A DNA stretch of 28,549 nucleotides, from assembly GCF_003334385.1 (NCBI RefSeq), contig NZ_QOWN01000056.1; one strand, written 5' to 3'. Origin of the DNA: Escherichia coli (GTDB lineage Bacteria; Pseudomonadota; Gammaproteobacteria; Enterobacterales; Enterobacteriaceae). Positions 1-472 of this stretch are shown here, piece by piece. Each line of letters begins with the position of its first letter. Position 1 is the stretch's first letter. Below the pieces are notes generated by a model. It did no database searches. It was not told the DNA's origin and saw only the letters and a list, made by a program, of their open reading frames with translations. A program made the position numbers and the translations under genes.

Positions 1-77
1 AACGCGAGGCATCGTCTTAACGAGGCACCGAGGCGTCGCATTCTTCAGATGGTTCAACCCTTAAGTTAGCGCTTATG
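1..77. mobile_element. Terminal fragment of an IS186-like (IS4-family) insertion sequence; 23-bp terminal inverted repeat caacccttaagttagcgcttatg at 55..77; the element continues beyond the window start
   Basis: gudD homology stops abruptly at ~78. The sequence 55..77 matches the IS186 terminal inverted repeat as I remember it (CATAAGCGCTAACTTAAGGGTTG on the opposite strand), and 1..54 resembles IS186 sub-terminal sequence. The adjacent flank (acgtttaccccc) is G/C-run rich, as IS186 targets usually are. Recalled, not searched. Confidence 0.65.
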
Positions 78-472
78 ACGTTTACCCCCAGATGCTGCCC
101 CAGCAGATCCAGCATTGCCGCTTCTATCCCGGTAACTACATGAATAGTGGTACGTAGGTCAAATGTCTGCAAACCGCGCCCACCAGCATCACGATCGGCA
201 AAAGTATTACGCACCAGCGTCAGAACGTTTTTGTATTCACCCAGCGTTTTACCTACCACCAGCGGAATCGCATCTTCCAGCGTTTTACGGATTTTCTCGC
301 CGCCGGGAATTTCCCCTACGCCAGTGTGACCAGAATTATCTTTGATAATCACAATATTACGCGTAAAGAACGGTGCGTGTGCACCACTCAGATTCATCAG
401 CATACTGTCATGACCCGCCACCGGGATAACCTGCATTTCAGTAACAACAGGCGTCGTAAATTGAGAACTCAT
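78..472 (-). pseudogene. gudD: gudD, glucarate dehydratase, 5' fragment (about 131 of ~446 codons) truncated by the IS insertion
   Basis: Minus-strand ORF 17..496 contains [58 protein letters not shown] (enolase-superfamily N-terminal domain; ATG at 470..472, RBS aagga upstream). After ...GQHLGVNV the frame runs into IS-derived sequence ([19 protein letters not shown]) and stops at 17..19. Confidence 0.85.

Follow-up and report, generated by a model that had tools for sequence, protein, structure and literature searches.

The window analysed here, a stretch of Escherichia coli DNA of 28,549 nucleotides, opens with sequence that cuts off gudD, the gene for glucarate dehydratase, after its first 132 codons. 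The locus raises the question of what interrupts gudD, and of how the junction between the two sequences was made.

The IS186 end at the start of the window

Window positions 1..77, which read AACGCGAGG...CAACCCTTAAGTTAGCGCTTATG, matched the right end of an IS186 element at 77 of 77 bases (E = 1e-31). This element lies between nupC and pdeA in ER1709, a derivative of K-12, at the position of one of the three K-12 IS186 copies. In ER1709, the match is situated directly downstream of a CDS with the annotation 'IS4-like element IS421 family transposase'; 'IS4-like element IS421 family' is the name used by the NCBI annotation pipeline PGAP for IS186, a 1.34-kb element of the IS4 family. The ER1709 element is 1337 bp long, is bounded by CATAAGCGCTAACTTAAGGGTTG and its reverse complement, and ends in the 77 bases of window 1..77. 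The same 23-bp repeat bounds elements of 1337-1339 bp in 12 reference IS186 copies. Two features were thus placed at the window start:

1..77, plus strand: transposase-distal right end of IS186, its last 77 nt (77/77 identity to the K-12-type copy)
55..77, plus strand: IS186 23-bp terminal inverted repeat (exact string match caacccttaagttagcgcttatg, the reverse complement of CATAAGCGCTAACTTAAGGGTTG)

The preliminary description had recognised an IS186 terminus here, with its 23-bp repeat at 55..77, and the full identity and the exact repeat match bore this out. The two ends of IS186 differ internal to the 23-bp repeat; the inner sequence in the window, AACCATCTGAAG..., is that of the transposase-distal right end and not of the left end. 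In fully annotated IS186 copies, the transposase CDS is on the same strand, upstream of this end; at this locus, the transposase gene would read from left to right and would end upstream of window position 1. The IS186 copy of E. albertii differed by one base from the window's 77-nt stretch.

When window 1..77 was used as a query, 8,422 places were found in 2,144 of 5,426 complete E. coli genomes, on chromosomes and on plasmids, nearly all with at least 99% identity and with a median of three per genome. Being multi-copy in E. coli genomes, the stretch is therefore a dispersed repeat. The membership features of a full IS186 element are a transposase gene of 370 aa, a total length of about 1.34 kb and a target-site duplication of 10-11 bp. 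By every sequence criterion applicable to 77 bases, the element at the window start is IS186.

Exactly 77 nt of IS186 stand at the start of the window. Its final base is that of a 77-nt tRNA-fMet gene, the first in a tandem array of three, and the repeated stretch there (28471..28549) is 79 nt long and occurs three times in related genomes. A de Bruijn assembler run with k = 77 leaves such ends at a branching repeat vertex. From this assembler behaviour, the window is probably a whole short-read contig, on which the assembler stopped at repeat vertices of k = 77. The absence of the remainder of the IS is therefore a limit of the assembly and not biology, and the contig break at gudD is explained by the repeat. 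The remainder of the element and the 3' part of gudD may reasonably be expected just outside the window.

The gudD junction and its occurrence

On the other side of the junction, window 78..472 (395 nt) agreed at every base with the 5' end of gudD in K-12 and in many other strains. The features of this side are as follows:

78..472, minus strand: gudD 5' fragment, codons 1-131 plus 2 nt of codon 132 (100% identity to K-12 gudD)
17..472, minus strand: fusion ORF, GudD residues 1-132 plus 19 IS-encoded residues (from the ORF list and its translation; stop codon 19..17)
493..1832, minus strand: gudX, with a 1-bp deletion between 1576 and 1577 (from alignment to K-12)

K-12 reads ...GCGATGCC joined to ACGTTTACCCCC... 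where the window reads ...GCGCTTATG joined to ACGTTTACCCCC.... Since the native K-12 sequence to the left of position 78 is ...GCGATGCC, the breakpoint can be placed precisely between 77, where the IS repeat has its last base, and 78. The fusion product has 151 residues and is identical to K-12 GudD for 132 residues, up to ...GQHLGVNV, after which it diverges. The earlier reading that the frame is colinear with gudD up to this motif and then switches to unrelated IS sequence was thus correct, with gudD cut after codon 132, but its statement that the fusion frame stops 27 codons into the IS was not: translation gave 19 codons before the stop at 19..17. In native GudD, the catalytic barrel domain MR_MLE_C (Pfam) occupies residues 188-405, and this domain was wholly absent from the window's ORF. 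Because the protein departs from GudD after residue 132 and the domain at 188-405 is missing, the ORF is a gene fragment and not a functional member of the family. From the domain architecture of the enolase superfamily, we infer that the fusion product could not be an active dehydratase.

The gene order gudP-gudX-gudD around the fragment was as in K-12, and window 78..3471 was colinear with K-12 gudD-gudX-gudP apart from one SNP and the 1-bp deletion. The gudP gene was intact. In gudX, the K-12 sequence GCACC was replaced by GCCC, so that the product was identical to that of K-12 for 85 residues and was followed by 37 out-of-frame residues to a stop. Judged from its reading frame, gudX is an inactivated pseudogene; it is next to gudD on its upstream side in the gudPXD operon, belongs to the operon context and is not part of the IS.

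The gudX deletion was common to only 4 of the 5,426 complete E. coli genomes (N18-04097, SCU-104, LR-33 and KE58). It was annotated as a frameshift in SCU-104 and KE58, and in both of these, the two that were inspected, gudD was intact. The source strain therefore lies in or near a small lineage in which gudX was broken before gudD::IS186 arose. A weaker reading is that a human-associated lineage may be shedding glucarate catabolism stepwise, first by the gudX frameshift and then by gudD::IS186. The remainder of the window was 99.98% identical to phylogroup-A-type strains (such as TUM9754, SCU-104 and KE58) and to K-12.

Some other features of the window were recorded. Window-specific SNPs at 1261 (gudX) and 20174 (fucU) were both synonymous. 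At 23707, between gcvA and gcvB and 75 nt upstream of the latter, the window has A where SCU-104 and TUM9754 have C. The small RNAs identified with Rfam, CsrB (5242..5601, minus strand), GcvB (23782..23987, plus strand) and ES036 (27003..27045, minus strand), were of full length and showed nothing unusual. Strain WP7-S17-ESBL-04, which is otherwise identical, carried about 1.3 kb of extra DNA within the region matching 78..25000, which is probably another IS insertion.

The occurrence of the junction was investigated in several collections. Window 1..472 as one piece was not present in any of the 5,426 complete E. coli genomes, the best matches covering only 78..472, and the gudD sequence of K-12 was uninterrupted at the site; the insertion is accordingly strain-specific, as had been proposed at the outset. 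The 151-aa fusion protein had no exact counterpart in a very large gene collection and public assemblies. In species-representative genomes, a scan for the terminal repeat of IS186 returned 7 stretches, most of them on contigs filed under unrelated taxa and none at gudD. A degenerate pattern for either gudD junction, allowing a duplication of 8-13 bp, returned 19 stretches from metagenome contigs, all of which were other IS186-type sites and none of which was at gudD. A literature search found no paper that treats gudD together with IS186.

Among the representative genomes, E. coli-type IS186 ends were present on short contigs assigned to Marinobacter, a Collinsella MAG, Kocuria and Bradyrhizobium. 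Their presence on contigs filed under these unrelated taxa is most simply explained by E. coli contamination of the assemblies. Nine of the metagenome contigs carried the same 18-nt IS186 tip and an outward GG-N6-CCCC flank, with inner sequence unrelated to E. coli IS186. These contigs appear to carry relatives of IS186 from environmental samples which keep the tip and the target habit.

The target beside the IS186 tip

IS186 inserts at 5'-GGGG(N6/N7)CCCC-3' (Lee et al. 2016, PMC5009759), and its choice of target is reported to be very strict. This preference is a habit of the transposase and does not serve to identify the element. Of 59 de novo IS186 sites in K-12 lines, only 7 deviated, by one or two bases, and none by more (PMC5009759). 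We surveyed the targets of ten further IS186 copies from complete genomes, giving 20 flanks, besides the copies of K-12 and E. albertii and the IS ends on stray contigs. In the latter three groups, the sequence read outward from the tip was GG-N6-CCCC. The CCCC arm was present in all 20 surveyed flanks, at +9..+12 or +10..+13 from the tip, and 19 of the 20 started with GG. Duplications of 10-11 bp, lying within GGGG-N6/7-CCCC and starting at the IS tip, were found in eight of the ten surveyed copies. Against this survey, two features were assigned in the gudD flank:

85..89, plus strand: C5 run that supplies the CCCC arm of the target (+9..+12, counted from the IS tip)
78..87, no strand: predicted copy of a 10-bp target-site duplication (ACGTTTACCC), after the 10-11-bp duplications that start at the IS tip in the surveyed copies

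The gudD flank, ACGTTTACCCCC, has CCCC at +9..+12, which is the canonical distance, with four of four bases matching. CCCC occurs at that offset for 0.17% of the positions in the window, and a C-arm so placed speaks for a junction made by the transposase. However, the place of the G-arm in native gudD reads CCAC, with none of four bases matching, and the flank starts with AC and not with GG. The half-site sequence in gudD is GATGCCACGTTTACCCCCAG, and a GGGG-N6/7-CCCC site was not found in any register, in gudD or in the window. The gudD target is thus a half-site and an outlier among the roughly 70 sites reviewed. The preliminary description had stated that the flank fits the G/C-run target of IS186; this held for the CCCC arm but not for the G-arm or the first two bases of the flank. 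We also considered whether the GG outside the tip might be counted as part of the IS, which would give a 25-bp repeat and a 6-bp duplication, and rejected it; the window flank starts with AC, and one plasmid flank in the survey starts with GT.

On balance, by a small margin over even chances, IS186 seems to have inserted in the normal way where its target offered a single arm, CCCC at the canonical distance without GGGG. If this is true, one arm would be enough for target capture, and the genes within reach of IS186 in natural populations would be far more numerous than the roughly 54 canonical sites of K-12. A natural IS186 junction at a half-target is the one mildly useful point for transposon biology.

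Origin of the junction and comparison with known systems

A simple insertion of IS186 in gudD of a phylogroup-A-like E. coli is the likely origin of the junction. The sequence breaks where the terminal repeat has its last base and nowhere else, which is what strand transfer by a transposase produces, and all seven chromosomal IS186 copies examined carry a 10-11-bp duplication. Against this origin, the gudD target is non-canonical, with four mismatches, all in the G-arm, compared with at most two in the 59 de novo sites (PMC5009759). The partner junction, the duplication and the transposase gene lie outside the window and were not retrieved from the collections scanned.

The junction could also be real at a locus that was later rearranged, in which case recombination with another IS186 copy, or a deletion or inversion mediated by the IS, would have replaced the far side, and the distal part of gudD would be deleted or moved. 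Such events are known: in two of the ten surveyed copies, the flanks did not match and there was no duplication, and since their left and right flanks were unrelated, IS186 ends are sometimes reshuffled after insertion. IS copies recombine often in E. coli, with 98 such events against 758 insertions (PMC5009759), and a contig break at this point would require two or more IS186 copies in the source genome. However, both flank-mismatched copies were on plasmids, while the duplications of the chromosomal copies examined were intact (7/7), and the window itself showed no sign of rearrangement, 78..28549 being colinear with related genomes. Because all seven chromosomal copies examined are simple insertions, we consider simple insertion to be the likely origin and a rearranged locus to be an improbable one. 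The two duplication-less copies were located on plasmids of strain 720632; their flanks came from different canonical targets, and one flank started with GT instead of GG, which suggests recombination between IS186 copies on these plasmids.

An artefact of assembly or library preparation, in which a repeat node of IS186 was joined chimerically to an intact gudD, is unlikely, and much more so than a rearranged locus. The junction does lie at the very end of a short-read contig, its target is without the G-arm, and neither the 5,426 complete genomes contained the junction nor the very large gene collection the fusion protein. A chimera, however, would not break at the exact last base of the terminal repeat, nor would it put CCCC exactly at +9..+12. 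IS186 and gudD have no long repeat in common that could mislead a k = 77 graph, the inverted repeat string occurs once in the window, and 78..472 matches gudD only. That positions 1..77 might instead be native flank, which the preliminary description had named as grounds for rejecting its reading, or might belong to another element, has practically no chance of being right: all 77 bases match annotated IS186/IS421-family elements, and at that point the gudD sequence (...GCGATGCC) runs on in K-12 and in more than 5,000 other genomes.

In a simple insertion, an IS186 copy would have transposed into gudD, with its right end joined between the bases matching window 77 and 78, within codon 132, and with its transposase gene oriented opposite to gudD. 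The full IS, a duplication of about 10 bp (ACGTTTACCC) and the distal 943 nt of gudD would then be expected on the other side. The left IS186 end would adjoin ...GCGATGCCACGTTTACCC, and the distal gudD sequence, a duplication of 9-11 bp and the left IS186 end would read ...CAGCAGCGATGCCACGTTTACCC(C) joined to CATAAGCGCTAACTTAAGGGTTGTGGTATTACGCC.... Glucarate dehydratase would be lost, the 151-residue product being without the active-site barrel domain. As gudD is the last gene of gudPXD, no polar effect would be expected on the other genes of the operon. The established pathway predicts that the source strain can neither dehydrate D-glucarate nor grow on it, and that it keeps the use of galactarate via GarD.

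The gudD interruption is a real but ordinary IS186 knockout of a non-essential catabolic gene; it is no new kind of system, the half-target is the sole unusual point, and its significance beyond the annotation of the strain is small. The K-12 copies (IS186A, IS186B and IS186C, with the nupC-pdeA copy as reference) have the same terminal 77 nt as the window, the 23-bp inverted repeat included, and a CCCC run at the same distance outside the tip as at gudD. The nupC-pdeA copy, however, has a perfect GGGG-ATAATT-CCCC target with a 10-bp duplication, whereas the gudD site is without the G-arm; the gudD site is also at a different location from the K-12 copies and was occupied in none of the 5,426 complete genomes. 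In E. coli B, IS186 was reportedly found at a hot spot in the lon promoter by SaiSree, Reddy and Gowrishankar in 2001. Like the gudD insertion, the lon insertion is reported to be strain-specific and to abolish the function of a host gene, but it lies in a promoter, at a recurrent hot spot with the consensus, whereas the gudD case is intragenic and at a non-consensus site. The de novo IS186 insertions of K-12 mutation-accumulation lines, with coding-region hotspots in menC and fimA among them (PMC5009759), likewise knock out a chromosomal coding gene and are guided by G/C runs; their 59 sites have two mismatches at most, whereas the gudD site has four, all in one arm.
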